Assembly (NCBI GenBank): GCA_045539995.1
Contig: JAZQGJ010000069.1
Location: 1-56,236 of the forward strand
Direction: 5' to 3'
Length of the DNA: 56,236 bases
Source of the DNA: Eubacteriales bacterium
GTDB taxonomy: Bacteria > Bacillota > Clostridia > Oscillospirales > CAG-272
The translations under genes and the position numbers were made by a program. Positions 20 through 38,253 of the stretch are shown one piece after another. Positions within the stretch are counted from its first letter, which is position 1, and the number at the start of each line of letters is the position of its first letter. The notes beneath the pieces are model-generated. The model did not search any database. It had not been told where the DNA came from and was given only the letters and a program-made list of their open reading frames with translations.

Positions 20-1246
20 TTATTTCTGTGGAATTCCGTAATTTTCAATAACGTAATCCATATCCTTATCGCCTCTGCCCGAAAGATTTACGAGCACAGA
101 GCCGTGTCCTAACTTCTCTGCGAGCTTTATCGCGTACGCGACGGCGTGAGCGCTCTCAATAGCGGGAATAATTCCCTCTGCGCGTGAGAGACGGAAGAAG
201 GCGTGTATCGTCTCATTATCGTCTATTACGTCATATTTTACTCTGCCGATATCACGCAAGAACGCGTGCTCGGGGCCAGACGAGGGATAGTCGAGTCCGC
301 TTGCGACGGAATATACGGGGGCGGGGTCTCCGTTTTCGTCCTTCAGCATTATGCTGTTAAAGCCGTGCATAATACCCTCTGTTCCATACTTAAGGCTCGC
401 CGCGTGGTCGCCCAGCTTCTCTCCTCTGCCGAGAGGCTCAATTCCGTAAATATTTACGGTCTCGTCCTTTAAGAAGCCCGAGAAGAAGCCTGCCGCATTG
501 GAGCCTCCGCCGACACAGGCAACGATATGGTCGGGCAATTCGCCCGTCATTTCGAGAAACTGCTCTCTCGCCTCAATTCCGACAACGCTCTGGAAATCAC
601 GCACCATCATAGGAAAGGGATGAGGGCCTAACACAGAGCCTATGCAGTAAATGCAGTCCTTGTATTCCTTGCTATAGGCTTCAAATGCCGCGTCAACGGC
701 TTCTTTAAGAGTAGCCAAGCCGTGTGTGACCTCTATTACGTTCGCGCCGAGTATCTTCATTCTCGCAACGTTGGGGGCTTGCTTTTTAATATCTACAGAG
801 CCCATATATATGTCGCATTCAAGTCCGAAATAAGCGGCGGCGGTAGCGAGAGCCACTCCGTGCTGTCCCGCGCCCGTCTCGGCTATTATCTTTTTCTTGC
901 CCATATATTTAGCGAGCAACGCCTCACCCATACAGTGATTGAGCTTATGAGCTCCCGTGTGATTCAGGTCCTCGCGCTTCGCATATATCTGAACGTTGCC
1001 TATCTGACTCGAAAGTCTTTCAAGATGCGTTATAGGAGTAGGTCTTCCTTGAAACTCCTTTCTTATTCTGCGAAGCTCGCTTATAAATCGGCGCGACTTG
1101 CAGATATTGAAGTAGGCGTCGGTTATTTCCCGCATAGGAGCCTTCAGCTCTTCGGAAATGTAGCAGCCGCCGTACTTACCGAAATAACCGTCGGTGGAAG
1201 GATAATCCTTAAAATAACTTTCATAATTTATTTTCTTTTCTTCCAT
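20..1246 (-). CDS. trpB: tryptophan synthase beta chain, stand-alone (no trpA in window)
   Basis: 408 aa. TrpB signatures HTGAHKLN (PLP lysine), [16 protein letters not shown] and [11 protein letters not shown] are colinear with canonical TrpB. AGAGGT RBS lies before ATG 1246. There is a 12-bp gap to the upstream gene, so it is the last visible gene of the Leu-T-box operon. Confidence 0.85.
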
Positions 1247-1258
1247 TCGTCTTACCTC

Positions 1259-2065
1259 TTATTTTAATTTATATGCGCGGAGCGCGTTTTTTGCAAATAT
1301 ATTCTCGTATTCGCTTTCACTGTAGCCGAGCGAAAGAAGATATTCTATCTCATTGTCTGCCCGCCACATAGGATAGTCGGTGCCGAAAAGCACTCTGTCG
1401 GTGCCGTAAGCGTCTATTATCCTCTTCATTTCATCCTTTAGAAGAAAGGCTGAGGATGAGGAAGTATCTACGTAGAGGTTTTCAGCGCCCTTCAAGGCTT
1501 TCGCTGCCTCTCCCCAGACAGACCAGCCGCCGAGATGAGCCGCGACAAAGGTGAGGCTCGGGAACTTTTTGATAACGGGCAATATCCTGTTGGGGTTCGA
1601 CCTGTCGTATCTCTTGTCTCCCGCGTGCATCAGTATGGGCACGCCCTTTTTTTCGCATAGGCTGTATATCTTGAGGCATCGCTCGTCATCTACGGCAAAG
1701 TCCTGTATATCGGCGTGCAGCTTTACTCCGTGAAGACCGAGCTCTATGAGATGCTCGAGGTCTGCTTCCATAGTCTTACTTTCGGGATGCATCGTTCCGA
1801 GTCCTATAAGACGGTCACTATGCTCGCAAACTTCTTTTGCTATAAACTCATTTATACGCTTGACCTGATGGGGCGAGGTCGCAAGCGACTGAACTATAAA
1901 CTTGTCAACGTCTGCCCGTCCCTCTCCCGAAAGCAAATCCGAAACTGTTCCCAGATGAAGTGATTTAAGTCCGTAAAAGGTGTCGGTGTGTGCGACTGCT
2001 ATCTCTGCTATTCTGTCGGGATAAACGTGGCAGTGAGCGTCAATTATATAATACTTCTTCGCCAT
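1259..2065 (-). CDS. metal-dependent TIM-barrel amidohydrolase-superfamily protein (amidohydrolase_2/ACMSD-like hydrolase or decarboxylase)
   Basis: 268 aa. N-terminal HCHVYP (HxH metal motif), internal HAD/HLGG histidines and C-terminal FGTDYP aspartate are typical of the family. Its start overlaps the stop of the upstream gene at 2065. Confidence 0.6.
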   Translation of the reverse strand: MAKKYYIIDAHCHVYPDRIAEIAVAHTDTFYGLKSLHLGTVSDLLSGEGRADVDKFIVQSLATSPHQVKRINEFIAKEVCEHSDRLIGLGTMHPESKTMEADLEHLIELGLHGVKLHADIQDFAVDDERCLKIYSLCEKKGVPILMHAGDKRYDRSNPNRILPVIKKFPSLTFVAAHLGGWSVWGEAAKALKGAENLYVDTSSSSAFLLKDEMKRIIDAYGTDRVLFGTDYPMWRADNEIEYLLSLGYSESEYENIFAKNALRAYKLK

Positions 2066-4584
2066 TACGCAGTTACCACGCCTGCCGCCTTCTGCAAGCC
2101 AAGCTTCTCTATAGCGTTCTCACGCATCTTATATTTGAGTATCTTACCCGCCGCATTCATAGGAAATTCGGTGACAAAATCTATATATTTCGGCACCTTA
2201 TGACGAGCCATATGAGCGTTTATATACGCTTTCATCTCTTCTACCGTCATCGTCTCGCCGTCCTTAAGAATTATACAAGCCATAATCTCCTCGCCGTACT
2301 GCTCGTCGGGCACGCCTATTACCTGTACGTCCTTTACCTTTTGGTGAGTATATATAAATTCCTCAATTTCCTTCGGATATATATTCTCTCCGCCTCTTAT
2401 TATCATATCCTTGAGTCTGCCCGTAATTCTGTAGTTGCCCTCGGGAGTACGGCAGGCAAGGTCTCCCGTATGAAGCCAGCCGTCAGCGTCGATAGCCGAA
2501 GCCGTCGCCTTGGGCATCTTGTAGTAGCCCTTCATAATATTGTAGCCTCTTGCCACAAATTCTCCCGTTACCTCGTCGGGACAGTCCTCTCCCGTTTCGG
2601 GATTTACTATCTTACACTCAATTTCGGGCAAGGCTCTGCCGACGGTGCCGACACGTACCTCTATAGAATCGTCTGTCGAGCTCATAGTACAACCGGGCGA
2701 CGCCTCCGTCTGTCCGTAAACTATAGTTATCTCTTTCATATTCATCTTCTCGACAACGTCCTTCATTACCGAGATAGGACAGGGGCTTCCCGCCATAATT
2801 CCCGTTCTCATATAAGAGAAGTCCGTCTTTTTGAAATCCTCGTGCTCGAGAAGCGCGATGAACATTGTGGGAACTCCGTGGAACACGGTAATTCTCTCGG
2901 AATTTATACAGGAAAGCGCAGGCTTCGGCGAATAATACGGAAGCGGCAGAACCGTCGCCCCGTGTGTCATAGCCGCCGTCATAGAAAGCACCATACCGAA
3001 GCAGTGGAACATCGGAACCTGTATCATCATACGGTCAGCGCTGGAGAGGTCCATACGGTCTCCTATGCACTTTCCGTTATTCACTACGTTATAATGCGTG
3101 AGCATTACGCCCTTGGGGAAGCCTGTCGTGCCCGACGTGTACTGCATATTGCAGACGTCGTCCTTATCTACGGCAGAGGCGCGTCTCGCAAGCTCCTCCT
3201 CGGAAACCATATACGAGCGAGCGCAAACGTCCTCCCACGTCATGCAGCCCTTTTGTCTGAAGCCTACGGTTATTACGTTACGCAAGAAGGGCAGGCGCTT
3301 GCTGTGAAGCGGCTCGTCTGCTTTCTTTGCGCTAAGCTCGGGGCAAAGCTCTGCTATTATTTCAGAATAATTAGAGTCCCTGAAGCCGTCTACCAGAACG
3401 AGAGTATGAGTATCCGACTGCTTTAAAAGATATTCAGCCTCGTGTATCTTATATGCCGTATTCATAGTAACCAGCACCGCGCCTATTTTGGTAACTGCCC
3501 AGAAAGCGATATACCATTCGGGCACGTTCGTCGCCCAGACGGCAACGTGGTGTCCCGCCTTTACTCCAAGCGAGATAAGCGCGCGCGCAAAATTATCCAC
3601 GTCGCGACGGAACTCGTAATACGTCCTCGTATAATTGAGCGTAGTATATTTAAAGGCAAGGTGGTCGGGGAACTCCTCTACCATACGGTCAAGCACCTGT
3701 GAAAACGTGCAGTCAATGAGCAGGTCCTTCTTCCATACGTATCTTCCCGTATGCGCTTTGTTATAGTAAAGCGAGCTATCCGAGCGAGAGGGGTCGCTGT
3801 ATTGGCTCATAAAGTTTTCAAACTGCGAGAGAATAATCTCAATATCGTCTATCTCCTCGCACCAGGCGGGCGACCATTCAAGCGACAGAAAATCGCTGTA
3901 ATTTATAGAACGCAGAGACAAAATGAAGTCGGAAATGGGGAGAGAGCCCTCGCCCATAAGACAGTAATTCAATGTCTCGCCATCCCTTTCGGCGTCTTTT
4001 ATATGAATGTGCTTAACGTAAGCTCCCAAATTCTCGATAGTCACGTCGGGGGTCTCGTTGCCTATAAAATAGGAAGCGCAAACGTCCCAGAGCGCAGCCA
4101 GAGCGTCACAAGCAAATCTGTCTAACATCTCGCGCAGAGTCTTACTGTCGGAAAAGAGACCGCTCGTCTCAAGCAGAAGCGTAACGTGCGCGCTCTCTGC
4201 CTTGGGCAAAAGCTCTGAGAGAAAGCTCTCGACGTAGTTAAGGCTATTTTCTTCGTTTTTTGCAGCGTGCAGACGTATATAGGGAATATGAAGATTTTCG
4301 GCTATTCGGATACATTCCTCTATCTCCTCGCGCGCAAAATCCTTTTGCGCCTCGTCAGAAAAATCACATATACTGTCGATACACGGAATAGACAGCTTTT
4401 TTTCATAAAGCTTACGCAGAGTGGCAGAGGAAAGATAGTCGCAGAATGCGCTGTCGTTTCCCGTAAAAAGCTCGTTCTTTACGTTGTGAAGCTCAATACC
4501 TGAAAATCTCAGGTCCTTTGCTATTTCGCAAAGCTCGTCAAAGCTCTTTCCGTGCCAGCCCTTCGTGGAAAAGGAAAGCTTCAT
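2065..4584 (-). CDS. fusion protein: N-terminal xylose-isomerase-like TIM barrel (sugar-phosphate isomerase/epimerase family) + C-terminal AMP-forming acyl-CoA synthetase/ligase
   Basis: 839 aa. Residues ~1-260 show the AP-endonuclease-2/XylA-like TIM pattern (IELH..., LLLETSG, HIHIKD, LSLEW). Residues ~290-839 carry adenylate-forming motifs YTSGTTGFPKGV, GYGQTE-like YGQTEASP, TGD and GRLKDMIIRGGENIYP. ATGA overlaps the upstream gene. Confidence 0.75.
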   Translation of the reverse strand: MKLSFSTKGWHGKSFDELCEIAKDLRFSGIELHNVKNELFTGNDSAFCDYLSSATLRKLYEKKLSIPCIDSICDFSDEAQKDFAREEIEECIRIAENLHIPYIRLHAAKNEENSLNYVESFLSELLPKAESAHVTLLLETSGLFSDSKTLREMLDRFACDALAALWDVCASYFIGNETPDVTIENLGAYVKHIHIKDAERDGETLNYCLMGEGSLPISDFILSLRSINYSDFLSLEWSPAWCEEIDDIEIILSQFENFMSQYSDPSRSDSSLYYNKAHTGRYVWKKDLLIDCTFSQVLDRMVEEFPDHLAFKYTTLNYTRTYYEFRRDVDNFARALISLGVKAGHHVAVWATNVPEWYIAFWAVTKIGAVLVTMNTAYKIHEAEYLLKQSDTHTLVLVDGFRDSNYSEIIAELCPELSAKKADEPLHSKRLPFLRNVITVGFRQKGCMTWEDVCARSYMVSEEELARRASAVDKDDVCNMQYTSGTTGFPKGVMLTHYNVVNNGKCIGDRMDLSSADRMMIQVPMFHCFGMVLSMTAAMTHGATVLPLPYYSPKPALSCINSERITVFHGVPTMFIALLEHEDFKKTDFSYMRTGIMAGSPCPISVMKDVVEKMNMKEITIVYGQTEASPGCTMSSTDDSIEVRVGTVGRALPEIECKIVNPETGEDCPDEVTGEFVARGYNIMKGYYKMPKATASAIDADGWLHTGDLACRTPEGNYRITGRLKDMIIRGGENIYPKEIEEFIYTHQKVKDVQVIGVPDEQYGEEIMACIILKDGETMTVEEMKAYINAHMARHKVPKYIDFVTEFPMNAAGKILKYKMRENAIEKLGLQKAAGVVTA

Positions 4585-5978
4585 CTTTCTGCCTCCTCGT
4601 TTACAATCTTGTTCAATGCGTTGATGTACGCGCCAATAGACGCGCCTATAATGTCTGTGGAAATACCGTTACCCGAATAGAGCTTGCCCTCGTTGCGCAG
4701 CTTGATAAGCGCACTTCCTACTGCCTCTTTACCCTCGGTAACTGCCTGAATCTGAAAATCGTCAAGCTCAAAGTGATGTCCTACTATCTGCTCAAGAGCT
4801 CGGAAGGCGGCGTCTATAGGACCGTCTCCCATAGCTATTCCACTTAAAATTTCTCCGTCGCGGGAGAGCTTTATTTGCGCCGACGAGGAAATTATGTTGC
4901 CGTTGTTTATTACGTAGCTCTCCAGTTTATAGACGGGGGCTGCCTGCATAGCGACGCTCGCAACCACTGCGTCAAGGTCCTTTGCCGTGACCTTTTTCTT
5001 TGCGGCTACCTTTTTAAATTCCTCGTAAACGCGTACGTTGTCCTCGTCTGTGAGGTCATAGCCTAAGCGACGGACGGCGTCGCTCACCGCCTCTATCGTA
5101 TCGTTGATATCAAATACGGCATTGTCATTTTCTGCGTCAAAGGACTTCTTTCCCGAATGGGACGAGCTGTCGCTTCCGCATATCCAGCCTATCTGCTTGG
5201 TAATTCTGTGAAGCTCGTTGTCGTTGATATCCAATTTCACTCCGCAACGGTCACCGCAAAGGCTGAAAACAGATGAAAAAGATTCGGTTTCGGGAATGTC
5301 GGAGGCGCCAACCGCGCATTTCATTTCAGACGCGCCCGCGCGAATAGCCATAAATGCCGACGCGGTCGCCATTCCTATAGAATTTTTACAGAGTATTCCC
5401 ACGCTTACACGGGAAAGCTCGGGTATGTCTTTTTTCAAGTCGCCAAAGAATGAAGCAAATTCGTCGGGAAGCATTACGCCCTCGTCGTCACATAAGGTAA
5501 CGGTGCTTACTCCCGCCTCTATGGCTTCGCAGATAACACGGCGCAGATAATCCCTGTCGGCGCGCGTAGCGTCCTCAGCGAAAAATTCAACGTCGTCGCA
5601 TTTTGCCTTTGCCATAAGGAAAAGGCTGCGGCAAAGCTCAAGCATCTTCTCGGGCTTCTTATGGAATGAGTATTCCATCTGAACGGCAGAGACAGGCATT
5701 TTTACGGCAAGTCTCGCGCGCTTTGCGCCCGAAATAGCCGCCGCCGCTATATTCACACTCTCCTCTGTCACGCCTGTGTCAACGCACAGCGCGCTGTATT
5801 TAATAAACGCAGAGGCCGTTCTTATAAGCAAAGAATCAGTTTTTACGTTATCGATAGGCGGCATGTGGATAACGTCAACCTTCAAATGGTCAAGATGTCT
5901 CGCTATCTCTATCTTTTCTTTGAATGACAAAGCGCTGTGTCTTTGCAGCGTCATATCGGATATAACAATTTTTTTCAC
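4581..5978 (-). CDS. LeuA/HMGL-like protein with C-terminal LeuA allosteric/dimerisation domain; canonical catalytic residues missing
   Basis: 465 aa with a GTG start. It is colinear with 2-isopropylmalate/citramalate synthase. However, DTTLRDGEQ is replaced by SDMTLQRHS and the HxH(D) metal motif by ILCKNS. The C-terminal ~110 aa resemble the LeuA_dimer regulatory domain. Confidence 0.6.
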   Translation of the reverse strand: MKKIVISDMTLQRHSALSFKEKIEIARHLDHLKVDVIHMPPIDNVKTDSLLIRTASAFIKYSALCVDTGVTEESVNIAAAAISGAKRARLAVKMPVSAVQMEYSFHKKPEKMLELCRSLFLMAKAKCDDVEFFAEDATRADRDYLRRVICEAIEAGVSTVTLCDDEGVMLPDEFASFFGDLKKDIPELSRVSVGILCKNSIGMATASAFMAIRAGASEMKCAVGASDIPETESFSSVFSLCGDRCGVKLDINDNELHRITKQIGWICGSDSSSHSGKKSFDAENDNAVFDINDTIEAVSDAVRRLGYDLTDEDNVRVYEEFKKVAAKKKVTAKDLDAVVASVAMQAAPVYKLESYVINNGNIISSSAQIKLSRDGEILSGIAMGDGPIDAAFRALEQIVGHHFELDDFQIQAVTEGKEAVGSALIKLRNEGKLYSGNGISTDIIGASIGAYINALNKIVNEEAER

Positions 5979-6020
5979 TTTCTTCTTCCTTTCGAATATG
6001 ATTAAGCCTCATACCTTAAA

Positions 6021-6286
6021 ACAAAAAGCCCCTGAAGCCTTTTAGGGCTTCAGGGACGAAAAATACTTCCGCGGTACCACCCTGATTACCGTCAAAAAAC
6101 GGTCTCTTTAAGGCTCTGACAAGCCCTTTGCCACGGTAACGGGGCATACCGGAATTTCTTACTGAGGTTCGGAAATTCTGCTCGGGAACGAGACTTTACC
6201 TGCATTCGCACATCGGCTCGCACCAAACGCCGACTCTCTTGTGTACGTCAAAGCAGGAAATAATTCCTTCATAGCATTTAAAAACA
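6021..6286 (-). promoter_or_regulatory. T-box riboswitch leader, specifier read as CUC (Leu), with intrinsic terminator
   Basis: On the minus strand: K-turn GCU-AUGA-A-GGAA...UUCC-C-GA-GC, AG bulge AGAGAG, distal loop GGUGCGA. The T-box sequence AAUCAGGGUGGUACCGCG is the complement of 6069-6083. The terminator stem is CCCUGAAGCC/GGCUUCAGGG plus a U-run (6021-6057). The triplet CUC (6190-6192) followed by G lies immediately 5' of the K-turn-proximal helix. Confidence 0.85.
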
Positions 6287-6292
6287 TAAAGT

Positions 6293-6321
6293 ATTTTACC
6301 ACATAAAAAACGATTTGTCAA
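6293..6321 (-). promoter_or_regulatory. sigma-A promoter of the Leu T-box operon
   Basis: Minus strand reads TTGACA (6316-6321), a 17-nt spacer, then TAAAAT (6293-6298). Confidence 0.7.
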
Positions 6322-6401
6322 CAGTTTTCACTGATTTTTTTCGTTTTTCAGAGTTTTTTCAAATTTGCTCGGTTTGTTCTGAGATTTTGAAGTCCTTTCG
6401 G

Positions 6402-7463
6402 TCAAATCTGATAGGTCCAGCCGAACGTGTCTTCACGCTTGCCCCACTGAATTCCTGTAAGCACGTCATAAAGATGTCCCGTTACCTCGCCTATCTTGCC
6501 GCCGTTGATTTCAAAAACCTTATCCTTATACGCAAGCGTTCCTATAGGAGAAACGACAGCCGCCGTTCCGCAACCCCATGCCTCCTCAAGCTTGCCCTCG
6601 TCGAGTGCGCGCTCAAGCTCATCTATGCTTATTCTTCTCTCGCTTACCTTGTAGCCCTCGCTTTTGAGAAGCTCAATGCAGGACTTTCTCGTAATACCGG
6701 GAAGAATAGAGCCTACAAGAGCGGGAGTAACTATCTCGCCGTCTATTTTGAACATTACGTTCATTGCGCCGACTTCTTCTATATACTTGCGCTCAACGCC
6801 GTCAAGCCAAAGCACCTGAGCATATCCCTTTTCCTCTGCCTTCTGTCCCGCGCGTGTGCTTGCGGCATAGTTGCCTCCGCATTTAGCCTCGCCCGTACCG
6901 CCTCTTACGGCTCTTACGTCATCGGCCTCTATCATTATCTTAACGGGGTTAATGCCCGCCGCGTAGTAGCTTCCGACGGGAGACGTGATAATCACGTAGG
7001 TCGCGCGCTTTACCGAATGAACGCCCAAGCTCTCATCGTTACCGAACATAAAGGGACGGATATAAAGCGACGTTCCCTCTGCCGACGGTGTCCACTCCTG
7101 CTCGAATTCAATGAATTTGGTAAGAGTCTCGAGAGCCACGTCCTCAGGAATAGTAGGAAGGCAAAGGCGCTCTGCCGAACGGTTCATTCTTCTTATATTC
7201 TCGATAGGACGGAAAAGCTGAACCTTGCCGTCTGCCTTACGGTACGCCTTAAGTCCCTCAAATATCTCCGCGCCATAGTGCAGAGCTGTGCAGGCGGGGT
7301 GAATTTGCAGATTACCGAAGGGGACTATTCTCGCGTCGTGCCAGCCCTCGCCCTCTGTGTAATCCATAATAAACATATGGTCTGTAAATATCTTGCCGAA
7401 GCCCAATTTGGAAGGGTCGGGCTTTTCTGCAGGATTAGGATTTCTCGTTATTGAAATATTCAT
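6402..7463 (-). CDS. ilvE: branched-chain amino acid aminotransferase
   Basis: ~353 aa. Class IV aminotransferase pattern (FTDHMF, HYGAEIFEGLKAY, GEAKCGGNY, GITR). ATG 7463 has a GAAGGTGA RBS. The ORF track extends to GTG 7472. Confidence 0.9.
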   Translation of the reverse strand: MNISITRNPNPAEKPDPSKLGFGKIFTDHMFIMDYTEGEGWHDARIVPFGNLQIHPACTALHYGAEIFEGLKAYRKADGKVQLFRPIENIRRMNRSAERLCLPTIPEDVALETLTKFIEFEQEWTPSAEGTSLYIRPFMFGNDESLGVHSVKRATYVIITSPVGSYYAAGINPVKIMIEADDVRAVRGGTGEAKCGGNYAASTRAGQKAEEKGYAQVLWLDGVERKYIEEVGAMNVMFKIDGEIVTPALVGSILPGITRKSCIELLKSEGYKVSERRISIDELERALDEGKLEEAWGCGTAAVVSPIGTLAYKDKVFEINGGKIGEVTGHLYDVLTGIQWGKREDTFGWTYQI

Positions 7464-7501
7464 TTCTTTCACCTTCTTAATAATTAAAAAATTAAAGCTT
7501 A

Positions 7502-8041
7502 TTACTTATAATTTTTTCCTAAACGGATTGCGCCTAAGTTTACGTCAAGCATATCCGCGCGCTTTGCCGAAATTACCTTCTTAAGCGCAGCGAGGATTGT
7601 CTCCTCGTCGTCAAAGTCGCCCATATCAGCGAGCACCTTGCCCATAATTATCATATTTGCAAGGGTGGGCGTCTTGTTTTCGTCAGCCATCTTCGTGGCG
7701 GGTATGTAGTGAACCGTCACGTCCGTTCTCTTAACCTTGCGCTCGATAAGAGAGGAATCCACGTAAATCGTGCCGCCGGGCACAACGCTGTCCTCGTACT
7801 TGTCAAGCGAGGGGAGATTCATCGCTATAAGAACGTCGGGGTTAGATACTATAGGAGAGCCTACGGGCGTATCACTCAGAATTACGCTGCAGCTCGCCGT
7901 ACCACCTCTCATTTCGGGGCCGTAGGAGGGGAGCCAGCTTACGTTCTTTCCCAAATTCAAGCCTCCGTAAGCCAAAAACTTACCCGCGAACAAAATTCCC
8001 TGTCCGCCGAAGCCTGCGAATAAATATTCTGTCGTTTTCAT
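7502..8041 (-). CDS. 2-oxoacid:ferredoxin oxidoreductase gamma subunit (Kor/Vor type)
   Basis: 179 aa. GFGGQGI N-terminal motif and the POR/KOR/VOR gamma-domain pattern. It lies in a delta-alpha-beta-gamma gene string. Confidence 0.85.
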
Positions 8042-8055
8042 CTTCTTCTCTCCTC

Positions 8056-8799
8056 TCAGTTGTTTGCGCTTCTGTCCTTATATACTCCGAGAGGATAATA
8101 AGGAATCATTTTTTCGTCTATCCATTCAAGCGCCTTTTTAGGTGTCATACCCCAGTTGGTAGGACAGGAGGAAATAACCTCTACAAGAGAAAAGCCCTTT
8201 CCGTTCACCTGATTTTCAAACGCCTTTTTAATAGCCTTCTTCGCGTTCTTTACGTTCTTTACGTTGTTTACCGCAACGCGCTCAAGGTATTCGGGGCCGT
8301 CAAGCTGTGAAAGCATCTCGCATACCTTTATAGGAAAGCCGCAGTGATTTACGTCGCGTCCGTAGGGGGAGGTCTGCGTTACCTGTCCGGGAAGCGAGGT
8401 GGGCGCCATCTGTCCGCCCGTCATACCGTAAATCGCGTTATTTATAAAGATAACCGTGATATTCTCGTTTCTTGCGGCGCTGTGTACGGTCTCCGCCATA
8501 CCTATTGAAGCGAGGTCGCCGTCTCCCTGATATGTAAATACTATATTTTCGGGGTCAGAGCGCTTAACGCCTGTCGCTACTGCGGGCGCGCGTCCGTGTG
8601 CCGCCTCTATCATATCGCAGTTGAAATAATCATACGCCATAACCGAGCATCCTACAGGCGCTATACCTATCGTTCTGCCCTCAATTCCAAGCTCATCCAA
8701 AACCTCGGCTACAAGACGGTGAACAATACCGTGAGTACAACCGGGACAATAGTGCAGAGGCAAATCTGCCAATGCGTGAGGTTTATCAAATACTACCAT
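8056..8799 (-). CDS. 2-oxoacid:ferredoxin oxidoreductase beta subunit (TPP-binding)
   Basis: 247 aa. CPGCTHG cysteine motif and the GDGD...NN TPP-binding motif (YQGDGDLASIG...INNAIYGMTGGQ). Confidence 0.88.
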   Translation of the reverse strand: MVVFDKPHALADLPLHYCPGCTHGIVHRLVAEVLDELGIEGRTIGIAPVGCSVMAYDYFNCDMIEAAHGRAPAVATGVKRSDPENIVFTYQGDGDLASIGMAETVHSAARNENITVIFINNAIYGMTGGQMAPTSLPGQVTQTSPYGRDVNHCGFPIKVCEMLSQLDGPEYLERVAVNNVKNVKNAKKAIKKAFENQVNGKGFSLVEVISSCPTNWGMTPKKALEWIDEKMIPYYPLGVYKDRSANN

Positions 8800-8800
8800 C

Positions 8801-9874
8801 TTATTTACCTACCCTTTCTGCCGCTTTTTCAATAGACGCCAAAACCTGCTCGGGAGACGGAATCATACCGCCGCTTCTGTTGCAGAGTGTAACGGGCGCC
8901 TTGTCGCTTATAGCCAAACGAACGTCCTCTATCATCTGTCCCATAGAAAGCTCTACCGAGATAAATTCCTTTACCTTTTCTGCTGCCTTCGCAAAGGGCT
9001 TTTCGGGGAACGGCCAGAGAGTGATGGGACGGATAAGACCTACCTTAATTCCCTTTGCTCTCGCCTCGTTTATTGCGTTCTTGGATACACGAGCGGCGAT
9101 ACCGAATGCAGCTACGCAAATTTCAGCATCATCCATCATATATTCCTCATACATTACTTCGTTTTCTTTTATCGCCTCGTAACGCTCATAGCGCTCAAAG
9201 TTGGTACGCTCAAGCTCCTCGGGCTTCAAAAACAGAGAGTTTACTATGTTGTGCTTTCTCTCCATCTTCGTGCCAGTTACTGCCCAGGGCTTTTCGGGCG
9301 ACGGCGCAGGTGAGAAGTCGAGAGAAACAGGCTCCATCATCTGTCCCATAGTTCCGTCCGCCAAAATCATAGAGGTCATACGGTATTTGTCGGCAAGGTC
9401 AAAGCCGTGTACCGTAAGCTCTGCCATTTCCTGTACTGACGCGGGCGCTAAAACTATCATATGGAAGTCGCCGTGCGCGCCGCCCTTTGTCGCCTGAAAA
9501 TAGTCGGACTGCGAGGGCTGAATACCACCGAGACCGGGGCCGCCTCTCTGTACGTTTACGATAAGCGCGGGAAGGTCTGCTCCCGCAAGATATGAAATAC
9601 CCTCGCCCTTAAGAGAAATTCCGGGGCTTGAGGATGACGTCATAACTCTCTTTCCCGTAGCGGAAACTCCGTATACCATATTTATTGCCGCTATCTCGCT
9701 TTCAGCCTGAAGAAATACGCCGCCTATTTTGGGCATTCTCTTTGCCATATATGCCGCAATCTCCGTCTGGGGAGTGATAGGATATCCGAAATAGTGGCGG
9801 CAGCCTGCAATAATAGCCGCTTCGGCTATCGCTTCGTTACCCTTCATTAAAACCTTATCTGCCATTTCTTTCAC
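8801..9874 (-). CDS. 2-oxoacid:ferredoxin oxidoreductase alpha subunit
   Basis: 357 aa. N-terminal LMKGNEAIAEAAIIAGCRHYFGYPITPQTE is typical of KorA/VorB alpha subunits. Confidence 0.88.
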   Translation of the reverse strand: MKEMADKVLMKGNEAIAEAAIIAGCRHYFGYPITPQTEIAAYMAKRMPKIGGVFLQAESEIAAINMVYGVSATGKRVMTSSSSPGISLKGEGISYLAGADLPALIVNVQRGGPGLGGIQPSQSDYFQATKGGAHGDFHMIVLAPASVQEMAELTVHGFDLADKYRMTSMILADGTMGQMMEPVSLDFSPAPSPEKPWAVTGTKMERKHNIVNSLFLKPEELERTNFERYERYEAIKENEVMYEEYMMDDAEICVAAFGIAARVSKNAINEARAKGIKVGLIRPITLWPFPEKPFAKAAEKVKEFISVELSMGQMIEDVRLAISDKAPVTLCNRSGGMIPSPEQVLASIEKAAERVGK

Positions 9875-10077
9875 CTCTCTACCTTAATAATACAGTCGGG
9901 GCACATTGTCGCGCAGAACGCGCAGCCTATGCACGACTCCTCTTTCACCGCTTTTACAGGGTGGTGGCCTTTTTCGTTAATCTCGTCCTCTGCTATCGCA
10001 AGAACGCCCTTTGGACATACGTCTACGCAAAGACCGCAGCCCTTACATTTTTCGGTCTTGAATGTCAGCTTTGCCAT
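9871..10077 (-). CDS. 2-oxoacid:ferredoxin oxidoreductase delta subunit (2x[4Fe-4S] ferredoxin)
   Basis: 68 aa with two CxxCxxCxxxCP clusters (CKGCGLCVDVCP, CIGCAFCATMCP). It overlaps the alpha subunit start. Confidence 0.88.
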   Translation of the reverse strand: MAKLTFKTEKCKGCGLCVDVCPKGVLAIAEDEINEKGHHPVKAVKEESCIGCAFCATMCPDCIIKVER

Positions 10078-10090
10078 TTTTATATCTCCT

Positions 10091-10747: not shown

Positions 10748-10770
10748 TTTACTTCTTGTATAATTTGTTT

Positions 10771-13056
10771 TTAAAGCAGATTTCTCTGAATTTTTCCGCT
10801 TGCAGTCTTAGGAAGCGAGTCCTTGAATACTACTATTCTCGGATATTTGTAGGGCGCCGTATGCTCTTTTACGTAATTCTGTATTTCACGCTTGAGCTCG
10901 TCTGTGCCCTCCGTGCCCTTTACTAAGACTATGCTTGCCTTTACTACCTGACCTCTCACCTCATCGGGCGCGGCGGAAACTCCGCATTCAAGCACGTAGG
11001 GCAATTCCATAATAACGCTTTCTATCTCGAACGGACCTATGCGATAGCCCGACGACTTAATGACGTCATCGACACGTCCGACGTAGTAATAGAAGCCGTC
11101 CTCGTCACGCCACGCAAGGTCGCCTGTGTGATAATATCCGTCGTAGCGTACCTCGTCCGTCTTTTCGGGGTCGCCGTAATACTCGGTAAACAGACCGCAG
11201 GGAGAGCCGTTTGATATATTAACAACGATTTCTCCCGACTCACCGACGGGAACAGGCTTTCCGTCTGAGGAAAGCAGCTCGACGTCATAAATAGGCGCAG
11301 GCTTACCCATAGAGCCTATCTTGTGAGGCGCGCCTGTGAGGTTGCCTATTATCATCGTGCTTTCCGACTGTCCGAAGCCCTCGAGTATCTGAAGCCCTGT
11401 AGCTTCCTCAAACTTGCGGTAAACCTCAGGATTGAGTGCCTCGCCTGCCGTCGTCATATGTTTAATAGATGAGAGGTCATATTTTGAAATGTCCTCTTTT
11501 ATTAACATTCTGAGCATCGTGGGGGGCGCGCAGAAGGTCGTTATCTGATATTTTGCGAACATCGGCAGAATGTCGGACGCGTTAAACCTGTCAAAGTCGT
11601 ATACGAAGGTCGCGCCCTCGCAGAGCCACTGTCCGTAGAACTTGCCCCAAAGAGCCTTCGCCCAGCCCGTGTCCGAAATTGTGAAGTGAAGTCCGTCAGG
11701 GTCTACGTTATGCCAATACTTCGCCGTATGGAAATGACCGAGCGCATATTTATAGTTGTGCGCCGCTATCTTAGGATAGCCCGTAGTGCCCGACGTGAAG
11801 AACATCAGCATAGGGTCGTCTCCTGCGGGGGTGTCGTCCCTTCGCTCGAAATGCGTGCTGAACATACTGCATTCCTCGTCGAAATTACGCCAGCCCTCTC
11901 TCTCTCCACCTACGATTATCTTGTGAAGCAGCTGAGGGCATTTCTTCGCCGCGATATCCACCTGCTCGGCAACCGCGCCCTTCGAGGTGCAAAGTATGGC
12001 GCTTACGCCCGCTTTATTAAAGCGATACTCGAAATCGTGGTCTAAGAGCTGATTCATCGCGGGAATCGCCACCGCGCCTATTCTGTGAAGCGCGAGCATA
12101 GCGAACCAGAACTGATAGTGTCTGCCAAGCACGAGCATTACCTTGTCTCCCTTTTTAATACCGAGAGAACGGAAATAGTTTGCCGCGCGGCAGGAATTTT
12201 TCTTTATATCGGAATATGTAAAGCGGCTCTCCGTCTTATCGTTGGCTATATGCAGAAGCGCCAGCTTGTTCGGACTTTTCTTCGCTATTTCGTCAACGAT
12301 ATCGTAAGCAAAATTGAACTTGTCTATATTCTTGAAGGTGATAGAGGTAGGCGTTCCCTGCTCGTTTTCCTCCGTGTCGATAAATTTGTTATATACTCTT
12401 TCCTCGGTGTCACGGCGAACGGGGGCAGCCACTTCTCTTTTCTGCGCCTTAAGCTCGGGTATTTCCGCGCCTGTGGGATTAAGAACGAAGGCGTAGAATG
12501 AGCAGTCCTCGCCGTTTACGGCTATCATACCGTGAGGCGTCGAGCTATCGTAATAGATACTGTCGCCAGGACCGAGAATTTCCTTATGCTCGCCTATCTG
12601 TATCTTGAGATGTCCCTCAATTACGATATCGCATTCCTGTCCCTCGTGAGTTGTAAGCTCTATATCCTTTACCTGAGCGTCCTCGCTGTATTTACTGCAC
12701 ACGTAGAGGGGCTCGGCAATTCTCTTCTTAAAAGAGGGAGCAAGGTTGAAATAGGTCATTCCGTGAGCCTGCTCTATTCTCTGTCCCATTCTCGCGCGAG
12801 TGAGCGTATAGGACTTAAGCGTCGGGCTCTTACCCTCTATAATATCGGTAACGTCAACGTTGAAGGCAAGCGCGCAGCGATATATAAAGGCGAAGTTGAG
12901 GTCTGAGCGTCCGTTTTCGCAGTCGCTGTACTCCTCTTCGGAAACGTTGGTTTTCAAAGCCATCTCTGCTACGGTATAGCCCTCTATTTCACGAAGCTCA
13001 CGTATTCGGTTAGCCATTTCTTGAATTTTATAATCAAGAGCTGTGATGTTTTGCAT
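10771..13056 (-). CDS. tripartite fusion: XRE-family HTH + cupin + AMP-forming (medium/short-chain) acyl-CoA synthetase, paralog 1
   Basis: 761 aa. Residues ~10-75 form an HTH_XRE domain (RIRELREIEGYTVAEMA...). Residues ~110-195 form a cupin (HEGQECDIVIEGHL...GDSIYYDSSTPHG). Residues ~230-761 carry FTSGTTGYPK, GFGQSE, YHTGD and GRVDDVIKSSGYRIGP. AAGGAG RBS precedes ATG 13056. Confidence 0.8.
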   Translation of the reverse strand: MQNITALDYKIQEMANRIRELREIEGYTVAEMALKTNVSEEEYSDCENGRSDLNFAFIYRCALAFNVDVTDIIEGKSPTLKSYTLTRARMGQRIEQAHGMTYFNLAPSFKKRIAEPLYVCSKYSEDAQVKDIELTTHEGQECDIVIEGHLKIQIGEHKEILGPGDSIYYDSSTPHGMIAVNGEDCSFYAFVLNPTGAEIPELKAQKREVAAPVRRDTEERVYNKFIDTEENEQGTPTSITFKNIDKFNFAYDIVDEIAKKSPNKLALLHIANDKTESRFTYSDIKKNSCRAANYFRSLGIKKGDKVMLVLGRHYQFWFAMLALHRIGAVAIPAMNQLLDHDFEYRFNKAGVSAILCTSKGAVAEQVDIAAKKCPQLLHKIIVGGEREGWRNFDEECSMFSTHFERRDDTPAGDDPMLMFFTSGTTGYPKIAAHNYKYALGHFHTAKYWHNVDPDGLHFTISDTGWAKALWGKFYGQWLCEGATFVYDFDRFNASDILPMFAKYQITTFCAPPTMLRMLIKEDISKYDLSSIKHMTTAGEALNPEVYRKFEEATGLQILEGFGQSESTMIIGNLTGAPHKIGSMGKPAPIYDVELLSSDGKPVPVGESGEIVVNISNGSPCGLFTEYYGDPEKTDEVRYDGYYHTGDLAWRDEDGFYYYVGRVDDVIKSSGYRIGPFEIESVIMELPYVLECGVSAAPDEVRGQVVKASIVLVKGTEGTDELKREIQNYVKEHTAPYKYPRIVVFKDSLPKTASGKIQRNLL

Positions 13057-13083: not shown

Positions 13084-13353
13084 ACAAAAAAACTCGTCCC
13101 AAAGATAAATACTTTGAGACGAGTCCTAAAAAACAAAACCCGCGGTACCACTCAAATTGCGATTCAAAATCGCCGCTCAAGGTCAAACAACCCGTATGTA
13201 CTAACGCAACATTATCGGAGAGAGTCTACTTGATTTCTCTTTCTTTCTCTCAGCTCGGAAGCTACAAACATACGCAGCGTCTTAACGGCTTGCACCATCT
13301 ACCGTCTCTCTGTGAAAACACACGCGAATATCCTCTTCGTCAAAGCCTTTATA
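13084..13353 (-). promoter_or_regulatory. T-box riboswitch leader, specifier read as GUA (Val), with intrinsic terminator
   Basis: Minus strand: K-turn GCU-UUGA-C-GAAG...CUUC-C-GA-GC, AG bulge AGAGAG, distal loop GGUGCAA. The T-box AAUUUGAGUGGUACCGCG is the complement of 13141-13161. The terminator stem is 13092-13104/13112-13124 plus a U-run. GUA (13263-13265) followed by G lies immediately 5' of the K-turn-proximal helix. Confidence 0.85.
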
Positions 13354-13359
13354 TCGGTT

Positions 13360-13388
13360 ATTTTATCACGACTCAAAGCATTTGTCAA
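13360..13388 (-). promoter_or_regulatory. sigma-A promoter of the Val T-box operon
   Basis: Minus strand reads TTGACA (13383-13388), 17 nt, then TAAAAT (13360-13365). Confidence 0.7.
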
Positions 13389-13433: not shown

Positions 13434-15695
13434 TTATAGCTTATTTCTTTGAATTTTTCCGCTTATTGTCTTGGGAAGCTCTTGCCTGAACTCGACAATT
13501 CTCGGATATTTATAGGGAGCCGTATGCTCTTTTACGTAATTCTGTATCTCACGCTTGAGCTCGTCTGTGCCCTCCTTGCCCGGCACGAGAACGATACACG
13601 CCTTAACGACCTGTCCTCTCACCTCGTCGGGCGCCGCAGTAACACCGCATTCAAGCACGTAGGGCAATTCCATGATTACGCTTTCTATCTCGAACGGGCC
13701 TATACGGTAGCCCGACGACTTAATAACGTCATCGGCGCGTCCGACGTACCAGAAATATCCGTCCTCATCGCGCCAAGCTGTATCGCCCGTATGATAATAG
13801 CCGTCGTGCCATACGTCCTTCGTTTTCTCTTCCTCTTTGTAATAGCCATTGAAGAGACCGCAGGGAATCTTATCGCTTGTCTTGATAACGATTTCGCCCG
13901 TCTGACCTGTGGGAACGGGATTTCCGTCAGAATCAAACAGAGAGATGTCGTAGAGGGGTACTGCCTTACCCATAGAGCCTACCTTACATTTGCTGCCCAT
14001 AAGGTTAGCTATTGACAGAGTAGTTTCGGTCTGTCCGAAGCCCTCCATTATGGAAAGTCCCGTCGCCAGCTCGAACTGACGGTGAACCTCAGGGTTGAGC
14101 GCCTCGCCTGCCGTCGTCATATGCTTGATTGAAGACAGGTCGTATTTCGAGATGTCCTCTTTTATTAACATTCTGAGCATTGTGGGGGGCGCGCAGAAGG
14201 TGGTAATATTATATTTTGCGAACATCGGCAAGATTTCCGACGCGTTGAATTTATCGAAGTCGTAGGTAAATACGCCGCTCTCACAAAGCCACTGTCCGTA
14301 GAGCTTGCCCCAGAGAGCCTTGCCCCAGCCTGTCTCGGAAATCGTGAAGTGGAGTCCGTTTTCATAGACGCCGTGCCAATATTTCGCGGTTATATAGTGA
14401 CCTAAGGGATATTTATGGCTATGCACGGCTATCTTCGGATAGCCTGTAGTACCCGACGTGAAGAACATAAGCAGAGGGTCGTTTCCGCAGGCGGTATTTT
14501 CGTCGCGGTAGAAATGCGCGCTATAGAGCGAATACTCATCGTTGAAGCTATGCCAGCCCTCTCTCTCTGCGCCGACGATTATCTTTGTAGCGAGAGGACA
14601 GCTCTTTTCGGCAAGCTCGACCTGATGCGCGACGTCTCCGTCAGAGGTGCACACGATGGCGCTGACCTCAGCCGCCTTGAAGCGATAATCGAAGTCGTGC
14701 TCTTGTAAGAGGTTTGTCGCGGGAATAGCGACAGCTCCCAGCTTATGTAGGGCAAGGATAGCGAACCAGAACTGATAATGGCGCTTAAGCACGAGCATTA
14801 CCTTGTCGCCCTTCTTAATACCGAGAGCGCGGAAATAGTTCGCCGTCATATTCGACGCGCGCTTCATATCACGGAAGGTAAAGCGGTTTTCTCTGCCGTT
14901 TTTGTCTATGTGAAGCATAGCGAGCTTGTTAGGCTCCTTTTTCGCTATCTCGTCGACTATATCGAAGGCAAAGTTGAACTTGTCCTCGTTTTCAAAATCT
15001 ATCTTTGTAAGGGTGCCGTTTTCGTCCTCCTCGGTATGAATGAAGCGGCTGCTTACAAGCTCCTTCTTTTCTACTCGCGAAGCGAGAGTCGCTCTCGTCG
15101 TTTGCTCGGGGATAGTCTCGCCGGGCAAAACGACGGCGAGGAAAAGGCACTCTCTGCCATCGACGGCAATCATACCGTGAGGGGTTGCGCTATTGTAATA
15201 AATGCTGTCGCCCTCGCTGAGATATTCGACGTGGTCGCCTATCTGTACCTTGAGTCGTCCACTCATGACGAAGTCGAATTCCTGTCCCGAATGAGTCGCG
15301 AGCGCTATAGGCTTATCCTGCAATTTTTCGTCATACTCGTATTTTACCCAATAGGGCTCGGAGAGCTTCTTGCGGAAAAGAGGTGCTAAGTTCTTTATCT
15401 CTATTCCGTCCTCCTTCGCAGTCTCCTGTCCGTTTCCTTTTCTTGTAATAGTGTAAGAGGAAAGCGATGCGCTTTGTCCTTCAAGCAGGTCCGTAATGTC
15501 GATGCCGAAAACCAACGCGCACTTGTGAAGAAATGAGAAGGGATAATCCTTGGAGCCCGCCTCGTATTCAAGGTATTGCTCTACGCTCACTTCGGTCTTT
15601 CGTGCCATTTCTTCTATTGAAATACCGTCTATCTCGCGCATTTCCTTAATTCGCAGAGCGACCTCTAAAAGCTTGTTTTCAGATGAACCTGACAT
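13434..15695 (-). CDS. tripartite fusion: XRE-family HTH + cupin + AMP-forming acyl-CoA synthetase, paralog 2
   Basis: 753 aa from ATG 15695, with a GGAGGTG RBS at 15701-15707. The domain order matches 10771-13056. It contains long identical peptide blocks (ITTFCAPPTMLRMLIKEDISKYDLSSIKHMTTAGEALNPEV). The ORF-track start at 15770 runs into a non-coding tandem repeat and is rejected. Confidence 0.8.
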   Translation of the reverse strand: MSGSSENKLLEVALRIKEMREIDGISIEEMARKTEVSVEQYLEYEAGSKDYPFSFLHKCALVFGIDITDLLEGQSASLSSYTITRKGNGQETAKEDGIEIKNLAPLFRKKLSEPYWVKYEYDEKLQDKPIALATHSGQEFDFVMSGRLKVQIGDHVEYLSEGDSIYYNSATPHGMIAVDGRECLFLAVVLPGETIPEQTTRATLASRVEKKELVSSRFIHTEEDENGTLTKIDFENEDKFNFAFDIVDEIAKKEPNKLAMLHIDKNGRENRFTFRDMKRASNMTANYFRALGIKKGDKVMLVLKRHYQFWFAILALHKLGAVAIPATNLLQEHDFDYRFKAAEVSAIVCTSDGDVAHQVELAEKSCPLATKIIVGAEREGWHSFNDEYSLYSAHFYRDENTACGNDPLLMFFTSGTTGYPKIAVHSHKYPLGHYITAKYWHGVYENGLHFTISETGWGKALWGKLYGQWLCESGVFTYDFDKFNASEILPMFAKYNITTFCAPPTMLRMLIKEDISKYDLSSIKHMTTAGEALNPEVHRQFELATGLSIMEGFGQTETTLSIANLMGSKCKVGSMGKAVPLYDISLFDSDGNPVPTGQTGEIVIKTSDKIPCGLFNGYYKEEEKTKDVWHDGYYHTGDTAWRDEDGYFWYVGRADDVIKSSGYRIGPFEIESVIMELPYVLECGVTAAPDEVRGQVVKACIVLVPGKEGTDELKREIQNYVKEHTAPYKYPRIVEFRQELPKTISGKIQRNKL

Positions 15696-15707
15696 AAAAA
15701 CACCTCC

Positions 15708-15927
15708 ATAAAAATTGAAAATTGAAAGTTGAAAATTGAAAATTATTGAATAAATCCTCTCGGAGTTCAATCAAATTAAATTAAAATAAAAATTGAAAAT
15801 TGAAAATTGAAAATTATTGAATAAATCCTCTCAGAGTTCAATCAAATTAAATTAAAATAAAAATTGAAAATTGAAAATTTAAAATTATTGAAAAAATCCT
15901 TTCGGAGTTCAATCAAACTAAATTAAA
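15708..15927. repeat. tandem repeat, three units (78+71+71 bp), each containing an internal AAAATTG heptad run
   Basis: Units start at 15708, 15786 and 15857, each beginning ATAAAAATTGAAAATTG...AATCCTCTCGGAGTTCAATCAAATTAAATTAAA. The first unit carries one extra heptad. The array lies in the 5' UTR between the Ile T-box terminator and the RBS. Confidence 0.9.
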
Positions 15928-15928
15928 A

Positions 15929-16232
15929 TAAAAAACGCCTCAAAGAAAAATCTTCTTTGAGACGGGTGAAATCTATACACTCGCGGTACCACTCAAATTG
16001 CGTCGATGACGCCACTTAGGGAGACTAACAACTCCTGCGCACTAACGCTGCGCTCCTCGCGAACTCCTACTGCACTTTTCAGAATTCGGGCTCAAAAGCG
16101 ATGGGTAATGACCTACTGCGTTATGGCTTGCACCTTCCGCCACTTCTCTGCGCCGCATAAAAAGGGTTACCGTCTTTATCATAGCCTTTATGAAATTACC
16201 TGCGGGGAAATAAGAACTATTTCCACATTTAT
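15929..16232 (-). promoter_or_regulatory. T-box riboswitch leader, specifier read as AUC (Ile), with intrinsic terminator
   Basis: Minus strand: K-turn GCU-AUGA-U-AAAG...CUUU-U-GA-GC, AG bulge AGAGAAG, distal loop GGUGCAA. The T-box AAUUUGAGUGGUACCGCG is the complement of 15982-16002. The terminator stem is 15936-15945/15955-15964 plus a U-run. AUC (16100-16102) followed by G lies immediately 5' of the K-turn-proximal helix. Confidence 0.85.
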
Positions 16233-17392: not shown

Positions 17393-17412
17393 AAATTTAC
17401 TCTCTTTCTAAA

Positions 17413-18696: not shown

Positions 18697-18713
18697 ATTA
18701 TAACTCCCTTTTC

Positions 18714-19562: not shown

Positions 19563-19588
19563 TTTTCTCCAATCCTATATAAAGAAAA

Positions 19589-20902: not shown

Positions 20903-20941
20903 TTTTATCTTCCTGTTCTTTTTTTAGAGCGTATTCCTTTT

Positions 20942-21916: not shown

Positions 21917-21937
21917 TTTTTATGCCTTTTATATTTT

Positions 21938-22681: not shown

Positions 22682-22709
22682 TTTTACAATTCCCTTTTCT
22701 TTTCACAAA

Positions 22710-23603: not shown

Positions 23604-23663
23604 TTTTATTCTCCTGACTTTTCTTTGCCTTTAAAAAGATTGGTTTTATCTTTACAAATCGCC

Positions 23664-37272: not shown

Positions 37273-37320
37273 ACTTCTCCTCCAAATAATCTAAAATATA
37301 ATCAAAGCCTGCAAAAAGCC

Positions 37321-38208: not shown

Positions 38209-38253
38209 ATGCTTGTATTCCTCCAACTCAATAAAATCTGCAAATAAATATAC

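Follow-up and report, generated by a model that had tools for sequence, protein, structure and literature searches.

A minus-strand operon at the left end of a 56,236-nucleotide contig from a Eubacteriales bacterium (JAZQGJ010000069.1, assembly GCA_045539995.1; the whole stretch is hereafter called the window) consists of a promoter, a leucine-specific T-box leader, a terminator and four closely packed open reading frames (ORFs). These encode a LeuA-like protein (hereafter pseudo-LeuA), a fusion of a triosephosphate isomerase (TIM) barrel with an acyl-coenzyme A (CoA) ligase, an amidohydrolase and a stand-alone TrpB (Table 1). The region is a composite transcription unit whose cargo does not belong to one pathway. 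With moderate confidence, we read it as the leucine arm of branched-chain fatty acid assimilation, leading from isovalerate to leucine, in which a dead LeuA may serve as sensor, the amidohydrolase is an accessory and TrpB has been relocated from elsewhere.

In the proposed route, uncharged tRNA-Leu would cause antitermination at the CUC T-box and so induce the ligase module. The ligase domain of the fusion would convert isovalerate to isovaleryl-CoA, a ferredoxin-dependent 2-oxoisovalerate:ferredoxin oxidoreductase (VOR) would turn this into 2-oxoisocaproate by reductive carboxylation, and the aminotransferase IlvE would produce leucine by transamination. Two MbcS-like ligases behind Val and Ile T-boxes, HCL1 and HCL2, would likewise serve the valine and isoleucine arms. 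Pseudo-LeuA would sense leucine and restrain the ligase, possibly by docking on the fast-evolving and often ligand-degenerate TIM domain, and TrpB would remain an ordinary tryptophan-forming beta-replacement enzyme. The gene set required for reductive carboxylation, namely a ligase, a 2-oxoacid:ferredoxin oxidoreductase and a branched-chain aminotransferase, is encoded together, and this gene content and linkage suggest a flux from isovalerate to leucine in the carriers.

The leader with a Leu specifier and the operon behind it

Compared with the RF00230 covariance model of Rfam, the leader matched over the full length of the model with 123.3 bits, the gathering score being 93. Its specifier loop places CUC at the codon position of the model, followed by the purine G, and matches one amino acid. 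The T-box sequence GGGUGGUACCGCG contains a UGGN-type bulge, and the antiterminator and the terminator (6057..6028) are mutually exclusive. In T-box leaders the antiterminator is stabilised by the uncharged cognate tRNA; judged from these features, read-through upon uncharged tRNA-Leu would be expected here by the mechanism established for the family.

Specifier codons of homologous leaders were read from an alignment anchored on the Rfam alignments of the window. The 64 leaders of pseudo-LeuA genes that could be aligned carried CUC (57) or CUG (7), all of them leucine codons. Since the variation is confined to synonymous codons, it provides strong evidence for the reading register and for the predicted assignment to leucine. 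Promoter-like sites with 11 of 12 consensus matches occurred just twice in the first 13.5 kb of the window, one of them being the promoter of this leader. The promoter and the Leu (CUC) T-box proposed in the first-pass annotation, which had been made from the sequence of the window, were thus confirmed.

The four genes are joined, in gene order, by an ATGA overlap, a one-base TAATG overlap and a 12-nucleotide gap with a GAGG ribosome-binding site, and a search for a convincing terminator between them found none. The GC content and the GC content at third codon positions (GC3) are even across the operon genes, and TrpB is compositionally not foreign. The order pseudo-LeuA, fusion, amidohydrolase and TrpB recurs in four independent assemblies from at least two species-level lineages, which shows that it is genuine and not a misassembly. 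The four-gene T-box operon as first described therefore holds in every detail, including its coordinates, the minus strand and the tight coupling of the genes.

It had also been suggested that the operon continues beyond position 1. A look-up of the exact TrpB sequence, intended to lengthen the contig to the left, gave no record, and near-identical relatives were examined in its place. In the related locus L084, asd (aspartate-semialdehyde dehydrogenase, 9725-10804) lies 50 nucleotides beyond TrpB, and the first terminator follows asd, so that the Leu unit may run past the left end of the window, where asd is probably the next gene. The extension is accordingly plausible, but a promoter-like site is present in the gap between TrpB and asd.

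The upstream oxidoreductase, aminotransferase and T-box-gated ligases

The general idea that the operon serves amino-acid salvage is supported by its upstream neighbours, where VOR, IlvE and two ligases behind Val and Ile T-boxes supply the metabolic context. Each of the three T-boxes in the window (Ile AUC, Val GUA and Leu CUC) precedes one ligase. Homologous leaders of HCL1 carried GUA (15) or GUC (4), both valine codons, and those of HCL2 carried AUC (21, Ile) and once CUC (Leu). The pattern of one T-box per ligase is conserved across loci. HCL1 and HCL2 are paralogues of about 770 amino acids each; that a metabolic ligase carries a DNA-/ligand-binding module is unusual, and the arrangement is conserved in many loci. 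No terminator was detected between the stop codon of IlvE and the Leu promoter (6322-6401, minus strand), so transcripts of the Val-T-box operon may extend into the Leu leader and face a second round of gating there.

Gene neighbours were tabulated by tblastn in 83 related loci. The fusion follows directly after pseudo-LeuA wherever the contig extends past pseudo-LeuA, and in most loci the pair is linked to one or more ligases with a helix-turn-helix (HTH) and a cupin domain, a ParA-like gene, the VOR genes vorBAC, and ilvE. The layouts of this linkage vary and include upstream, downstream and divergent arrangements as well as single operons (L033, L041, L074, L077). In L008, one T-box (CUC by eye) stands before the ParA-like gene, vorBAC, ilvE, pseudo-LeuA, the fusion and the amidohydrolase, which links VOR and IlvE directly to the supply of leucine. 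A subgroup of loci without a T-box (L033, L041, L055, L062, L074) has all genes in one operon, comprising pseudo-LeuA, the fusion, IlvE, the ParA-like gene, ferredoxin, VorBAC and a third ligase type; the operon of L041 is adjoined by a small divergent XRE-family regulator (9425-9763). The ParA/NUBPL-like gene is found directly upstream of ferredoxin and VorBAC in nearly all related loci, and its product may serve VOR as an Fe-S or assembly factor.

The TIM-barrel::acyl-CoA-ligase fusion

The ligase domain of the fusion matches AMP-binding (316 bits) and AMP-binding_C (65 bits) and is nearest to the PRK12583 'fatty acid CoA ligase' subfamily (697 bits). Its P-loop YTSGTTGFPKG and the C-terminal catalytic lysine K814 are invariant in the family. 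MbcS of Staphylococcus aureus activates 2-methylbutyrate and isobutyrate, with isovalerate being a very poor substrate (PMC10026030). HCL1 and HCL2 resemble MbcS (NF047394) at 432-444 bits, and their Ile and Val T-boxes match its preference for 2-methylbutyrate and isobutyrate; they differ from it in scoring under the equivalog cut-off of 850 and in carrying N-terminal HTH-XRE and cupin domains. By contrast, the ligase of the leucine arm belongs to a different, PRK12583-like class, as would be expected because isovalerate is such a poor substrate of MbcS. Based on the Leu/Val/Ile T-box triad, the shared VOR and IlvE, and the specificity of MbcS, isovalerate is the likely substrate of the fusion ligase.

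The xylose-isomerase-like TIM domain scores 75.4 bits for AP_endonuc_2 against a cut-off of 31.1, and its fold was predicted with a predicted local distance difference test (pLDDT) score of 89. A fold search returned AsbF, IolI and sugar 3-epimerases at template modelling (TM) scores of about 0.7 and 13-21% identity, all of them generic relatives. Family conservation is much lower here than in the ligase domain (35-58% versus 70-94%). The copy in the window has the four canonical Glu/Asp/His/Glu metal ligands, E139, D167, H194 and E236, positions that were assigned by motif spacing; the ligands are complete in 35 of 71 family members and read ENHV in 12. Elsewhere (36379-39144, minus strand), the window encodes three AP_endonuc_2 TIM-barrel paralogues in tandem, all stand-alone and sharing 62-74% identity. 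They were considered as kin of the fused domain and discarded, there being no detectable sequence relation.

Pseudo-LeuA, a LeuA relative with the catalytic motifs lost

Pseudo-LeuA contains the Pfam domains HMGL-like (107 bits) and LeuA_dimer (114 bits) and falls below the equivalog cut-offs for LeuA, the best score being 277.5 against 532 bits and that for TIGR00973 248.5 against 598.7. For catalysis and metal binding, LeuA relies on Arg and Asp residues in DTTLRDGEQ, on an HxH motif and on a His within the HESGIHQDG subdomain. In pseudo-LeuA, DTTLRDGEQ has become DMTLQRHSA and HxHNDxG has become LCKNSIG, with 'c n s i g' opposite 'C H N D L G' in the alignment to LeuA; the place of the catalytic-His subdomain is taken by variable sequence at residues about 266-290, of low pLDDT in the AlphaFold2 model, which leaves residues 271-285 unplaced. 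These losses hold family-wide in alignments of 28 and of 85 members. Judged from its residues, pseudo-LeuA is a pseudoenzyme with respect to LeuA chemistry, and Claisen condensation is predicted to be impossible. The first-pass annotation had identified each of the four proteins and had recognised that the LeuA-like one is catalytically dead; the domain scores and motifs support both points.

The predicted fold matches full-length LeuA structures (1SR9, 3RMJ and the leucine-bound M. tuberculosis enzyme 3FIG). Conservation is concentrated in the C-terminal regulatory domain, where identity to the window residue across the family is 0.6-0.77 (barrel, 0.31-0.57) and where the GDGPIDA loop is invariant. 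This loop stands opposite GDGGYDA in a weak alignment with the regulatory domain of Leptospira citramalate synthase (3F6G) that covers the GDG..DA loop; the GDGGYDA segment is presumably one that contributes effector-binding residues there. Invariant polar residues left in the barrel are D8, T10, E21, E102, K108, E131, D136 and R139.

Relatives of pseudo-LeuA are named 'hypothetical protein' in databases and come from metagenome-assembled genomes (MAGs) of Clostridia. When one genome per species was scanned for the family, tblastn confirmed at least 590 stretches, of which the best 80 were taken. Most of the stretches come from Oscillospiraceae, Acutalibacteraceae, Ruminococcaceae and Lachnospiraceae of the gut and rumen. 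Pseudo-LeuA is thus a widespread, unannotated family.

It is tentatively proposed, by analogy with HisZ and HisG, that pseudo-LeuA could be a leucine-sensing subunit that places the ligase under feedback control, perhaps through the TIM domain. A related and somewhat bolder proposal, to which we give rather less than even chances, is that it founds a pseudoenzyme family of leucine-sensing allosteric subunits of isovalerate-CoA ligases, with the degenerate TIM barrel as their docking platform. In that case, the domain behind classical LeuA feedback would have been transferred in evolution to the initial reaction of a different leucine route, that of reductive carboxylation.

The amidohydrolase and alternative roles of the module

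The amidohydrolase matches Amidohydro_2 (PF04909) at 120 bits, above the Pfam cut-off, and its active-site residues H11, H13, K115, H147, H177 and D230 are present and invariant in the family. Among solved structures, its best relative is 3IRS, an uncharacterised protein of Bordetella. It lies downstream of the fusion in 33 of 62 informative loci and is missing from the other 29; in L027 it precedes the pseudo-LeuA/fusion pair. From its residues, it is taken to be an intact accessory enzyme. Relatives of the amidohydrolase and of the TIM domain in the PDB, found by sequence and fold (Art22, AsbF, IolI, sugar epimerases, BB4693), were generic or uncharacterised and gave no functional lead.

The intact amidohydrolase raises the alternative that it, the TIM domain and pseudo-LeuA are active enzymes with new chemistry, which would convert another leucine-skeleton precursor, instead of free isovalerate, to isovaleryl-CoA or 2-oxoisocaproate, the ligase acting on that intermediate. 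The invariant active site would fit such a role, as would the four canonical ligands of the TIM domain in the window, the invariant polar residues retained in the barrel of pseudo-LeuA, and the fact that the amidohydrolase stays in the operon of L027 when the gene order shifts. However, about half of the family has degenerate TIM ligands, and across loci ligand integrity showed no correlation with the presence of the amidohydrolase, which itself is dispensed with in nearly half of the informative loci. Moreover, neither the metal ligands nor the catalytic-His subdomain are left in pseudo-LeuA, and the barrel is its least conserved part. New chemistry of this kind is therefore considered unlikely.

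Another alternative retains isovalerate activation and assigns it to lipid synthesis: the ligase would mainly supply isovaleryl-CoA as the primer of iso-odd branched-chain membrane fatty acids, and the Leu T-box would report the loss of the leucine-derived primer. MbcS-type ligases do support branched-chain fatty acid synthesis (PMC10026030), and leucine starvation would be expected to deplete leucine-derived isovaleryl-CoA too. The consistent and sometimes co-operonic linkage to VOR and IlvE argues otherwise, as these enzymes are needed for the amino acid and not for the primer. The Ile/Val/Leu T-box triad likewise points to the amino acids themselves, and the leucine-type regulatory domain of pseudo-LeuA fits end-product control, which leaves the primer role with little probability.

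Several points nevertheless weigh against reading the module as the leucine arm of branched-chain acid assimilation. It is regulatory and positional logic that names isovalerate as the substrate, and leucine binding by pseudo-LeuA and its contact with the fusion are both put forward as proposals. The complete set of TIM ligands in the window together with the intact, conserved amidohydrolase means that some unrecognised catalysis may belong to the module. About 20 of 84 loci have no recognisable T-box upstream of pseudo-LeuA. Finally, the close relative L084 carries neither VOR nor IlvE in the 3.7 kb of contig upstream, so their linkage is not universal.

TrpB as a passenger of the leucine operon

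TrpB scores 528.7 bits for TIGR00263, exceeding the equivalog cut-off of 392.45. By tblastn it was found in none of the 83 other loci that carry the pseudo-LeuA/fusion pair. Clostridia MAGs very commonly carry TrpB orthologues of 84-99% identity, and the four-gene order with TrpB occurs only in the closest relatives, L084-L087, whose TrpB proteins are 94-99% identical to that of the window; L084 also carries a CUC T-box. Between the lineages that share this order, pseudo-LeuA is 74%, the amidohydrolase 76% and TrpB 94% identical. The first-pass annotation had proposed a search for conservation of the four-gene neighbourhood, and the outcome was divided: pseudo-LeuA and the fusion are adjacent throughout the 83 loci wherever the contig continues, but TrpB joins them only in those four relatives.

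More distant TrpB orthologues (85-89% identical) are located elsewhere, with no ligase or amidohydrolase nearby. In L088, a monocistronic trpB stands behind its own T-box (84 bits) with a UGG specifier and a UGGC bulge. In L089, trpB closes an operon for a TrpX-like ATP-binding cassette (ABC) transporter, which is preceded by a T-box-like leader whose core motif was found by pattern search and whose specifier was read by eye as UGG; in L091, trpB is at yet another location and has no leader. Trp T-box regulons that include the TrpXYZ transporter have been described (PMC9382623). In L088 (7865-7960) and L089 (3276-3320), the Trp T-box terminator is followed, ahead of the first gene, by a short conserved ORF with a Trp codon, MFLLV(R/K)RWR...; this ORF may encode a leader peptide providing a second Trp-sensing layer. 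Neither the window nor the 6-10 kb around the TrpB orthologues contained a trpA.

Considering its absence from the 83 loci and the position of its orthologues behind Trp T-boxes, TrpB is a passenger in the lineage of the window. It is a native Trp-related gene that was moved to the tail of the Leu operon, with loss of its Trp leader, in this lineage only. Because trpA is not nearby in any lineage examined, the enzyme probably serves indole salvage. The possibility raised at the outset that trpB responds to Trp rather than Leu is correct for the family, which stands behind UGG T-boxes elsewhere, but in the window the gene is apparently wired to the Leu T-box. Such stand-alone TrpB proteins are common in these organisms and probably used for indole salvage, and their rewiring to a non-cognate T-box appears to be possible.

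These results did not bear out the earlier proposal that ligase, amidohydrolase and TrpB make up one small pathway. That all four genes constitute a single new pathway, for instance one in which TrpB adds a carbon nucleophile to the serine-derived aminoacrylate and yields leucine (beta-isopropyl-alanine) or an analogue, might be argued from their tight coupling under a single Leu T-box, from an order kept over species-level divergence and from leucine being formally a beta-substituted alanine, but it is most improbable given that TrpB is absent from all 83 other module loci, scores above the TrpB equivalog cut-off, has orthologues that follow either a Trp (UGG) T-box or the genes of a Trp-type ABC transporter without ligase or amidohydrolase nearby, and is itself missing from the many loci that have the amidohydrolase. 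Leucine formation by TrpB-catalysed beta-replacement was considered and rejected in view of where the TrpB orthologues occur and how they are regulated.

Table 1. Features of the Leu T-box operon and of the upstream genes in the window
Feature	Position	Strand	Details
TrpB, TrpB1 type, stand-alone	20..1246	-	TIGR00263
Amidohydro_2 metal hydrolase, 268 amino acids	1259..2065	-	
TIM::ligase fusion, 839 amino acids	2065..4584	-	AP_endonuc_2 + AMP-binding + AMP-binding_C
Adenylate-forming acyl-CoA ligase domain, fusion residues 286-839	2065..3729	-	PRK12583-like
Xylose-isomerase-like TIM-barrel domain, fusion residues 1-285	3730..4584	-	AP_endonuc_2
Pseudo-LeuA (LeuA-like), 465 amino acids	4581..5978	-	HMGL-like barrel + LeuA_dimer
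Intrinsic terminator of Leu T-box	6028..6057	-	12-bp stem, 8 GC pairs, then T-run
T-box leader, Leu specifier CUC (then G), UGGU bulge	6049..6281	-	RF00230, 123.3 bits, E 6.6e-27
Sigma-70-type promoter TTGACA-17-TAAAAT, extended -10 TG	6293..6321	-	11/12 consensus matches
IlvE branched-chain aminotransferase	6402..7472	-	last gene of Val-T-box operon; 481 bits, cut-off 307
VOR (2-oxoisovalerate:ferredoxin oxidoreductase)	7502..10077	-	
VOR gamma	8041..7502	-	
VOR beta	8799..8056	-	
VOR alpha (VorB)	9874..8801	-	
VOR ferredoxin	10077..9871	-	
ParA/NUBPL-like P-loop protein, 218 amino acids	10091..10747	-	conserved beside ferredoxin and VOR
HCL1	10771..13056	-	HTH-XRE + cupin + MbcS-like acyl-CoA synthetase
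Val T-box, specifier GUA, before HCL1	13112..13352	-	93.4 bits
Promoter of Val leader	13360..13388	-	same architecture as Leu-leader promoter
HCL2	13434..15770	-	HTH-XRE + cupin + MbcS-like acyl-CoA synthetase
Ile T-box, specifier AUC, before HCL2	15955..16191	-	80.4 bits, E 1e-17, below Rfam gathering score

Relation to known systems and significance

Protein fermentation in the gut and rumen yields branched-chain fatty acids as major products, and as 'isoacids' these acids are given to ruminants in order to stimulate fibre-degrading bacteria. The conversion of these acids to amino acids has been known as a physiological activity for decades, its genes and control being poorly defined. Allison and co-workers reportedly found that rumen anaerobes turn isovalerate, isobutyrate and 2-methylbutyrate into leucine, valine and isoleucine by reductive carboxylation. 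The enzyme set that this route requires is encoded at the present locus, and the carriers are gut and rumen Clostridia; here the pathway is predicted from gene content and linkage, whereas the rumen route was described as physiology. In Prevotella the reverse reaction has been called 'not proven yet' (PMC7709123).

The T-box itself is ordinary and the pathway is biochemically known. Like the RF00230 T-boxes of branched-chain genes in Firmicutes (ilv-leu operons, leuS), the Leu leader has a Stem I specifier loop, a UGGN bulge and a terminator/antiterminator pair, and CUC is a common choice for leucine. It differs from them in that the gated gene set is an acyl-CoA ligase module instead of leuABCD or leuS. 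In contrast to known T-box regulons, three cognate T-boxes here each gate a different branched-chain acid ligase at one locus.

LeuA receives leucine feedback through its C-terminal domain, and pseudo-LeuA shares with it the domain order, the fold and the GxGPxDA loop; it departs from LeuA in lacking the metal-binding Asp, HxH and the catalytic-His subdomain, and in having the ligase fusion as its partner in place of leuBCD. The closest parallel in logic is HisZ, a HisRS paralogue that has lost catalysis and, as the regulatory subunit of the short HisG, senses histidine (PMC9734150). The likeness would be one of logic only, in that an end-product-binding pseudoenzyme serves as the allosteric subunit of the first committed enzyme, whereas the protein families are unrelated to pseudo-LeuA and the fusion. 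The window also has a HisZ/HisG pair of its own, a HisRS-like HisZ of 367 amino acids and a short HisG of 213 amino acids, heading a complete his operon (31610-33351, minus strand).

With stand-alone indole-salvage TrpB proteins and those of Trp T-box regulons, TrpB of the window has in common the TrpB1 type and the lack of a nearby trpA; in distinction from trpB genes under Trp T-boxes, it has no Trp leader and stands behind a Leu T-box.

A search of the available literature library for the cluster organisation, the T-box triad, pseudo-LeuA, the TIM::ligase fusion and a bacterial isovalerate-CoA ligase found no description of any of them. As far as these searches show, the T-box triad with one T-box per ligase, the pseudo-LeuA family and its obligatory partnership with the TIM::ligase fusion are apparently undescribed. 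The locus offers a testable genetic blueprint, in which three ligases, each gated by its cognate tRNA, would feed a shared VOR and IlvE. It could further serve as a marker to predict which uncultured Clostridia depend on isovalerate for leucine, and pseudo-LeuA is a candidate for a new pseudoenzyme regulator.

Other genes of the window

The left half of the window is a one-strand island of amino-acid biosynthesis genes. Beyond the Ile T-box, the minus strand at 16469-24977 encodes metA (acetyl type), O-acetylhomoserine sulfhydrylase, a type II pantothenate kinase, lysA, diaminopimelate dehydrogenase, dapB, dapA and aspartate kinase.

On the plus strand, a lysine riboswitch (44085-44251, 94.9 bits) lies directly before a gene for an Na_H_antiporter (NhaC-like) family membrane protein, which probably transports lysine. 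Because the ORF start as listed (44233) overlaps the lysine aptamer, translation probably begins later. Further along the same strand (47126-51285), an N6/N4 DNA methylase gene is followed by one for a ResIII helicase-type protein, an arrangement that looks like type III restriction-modification.

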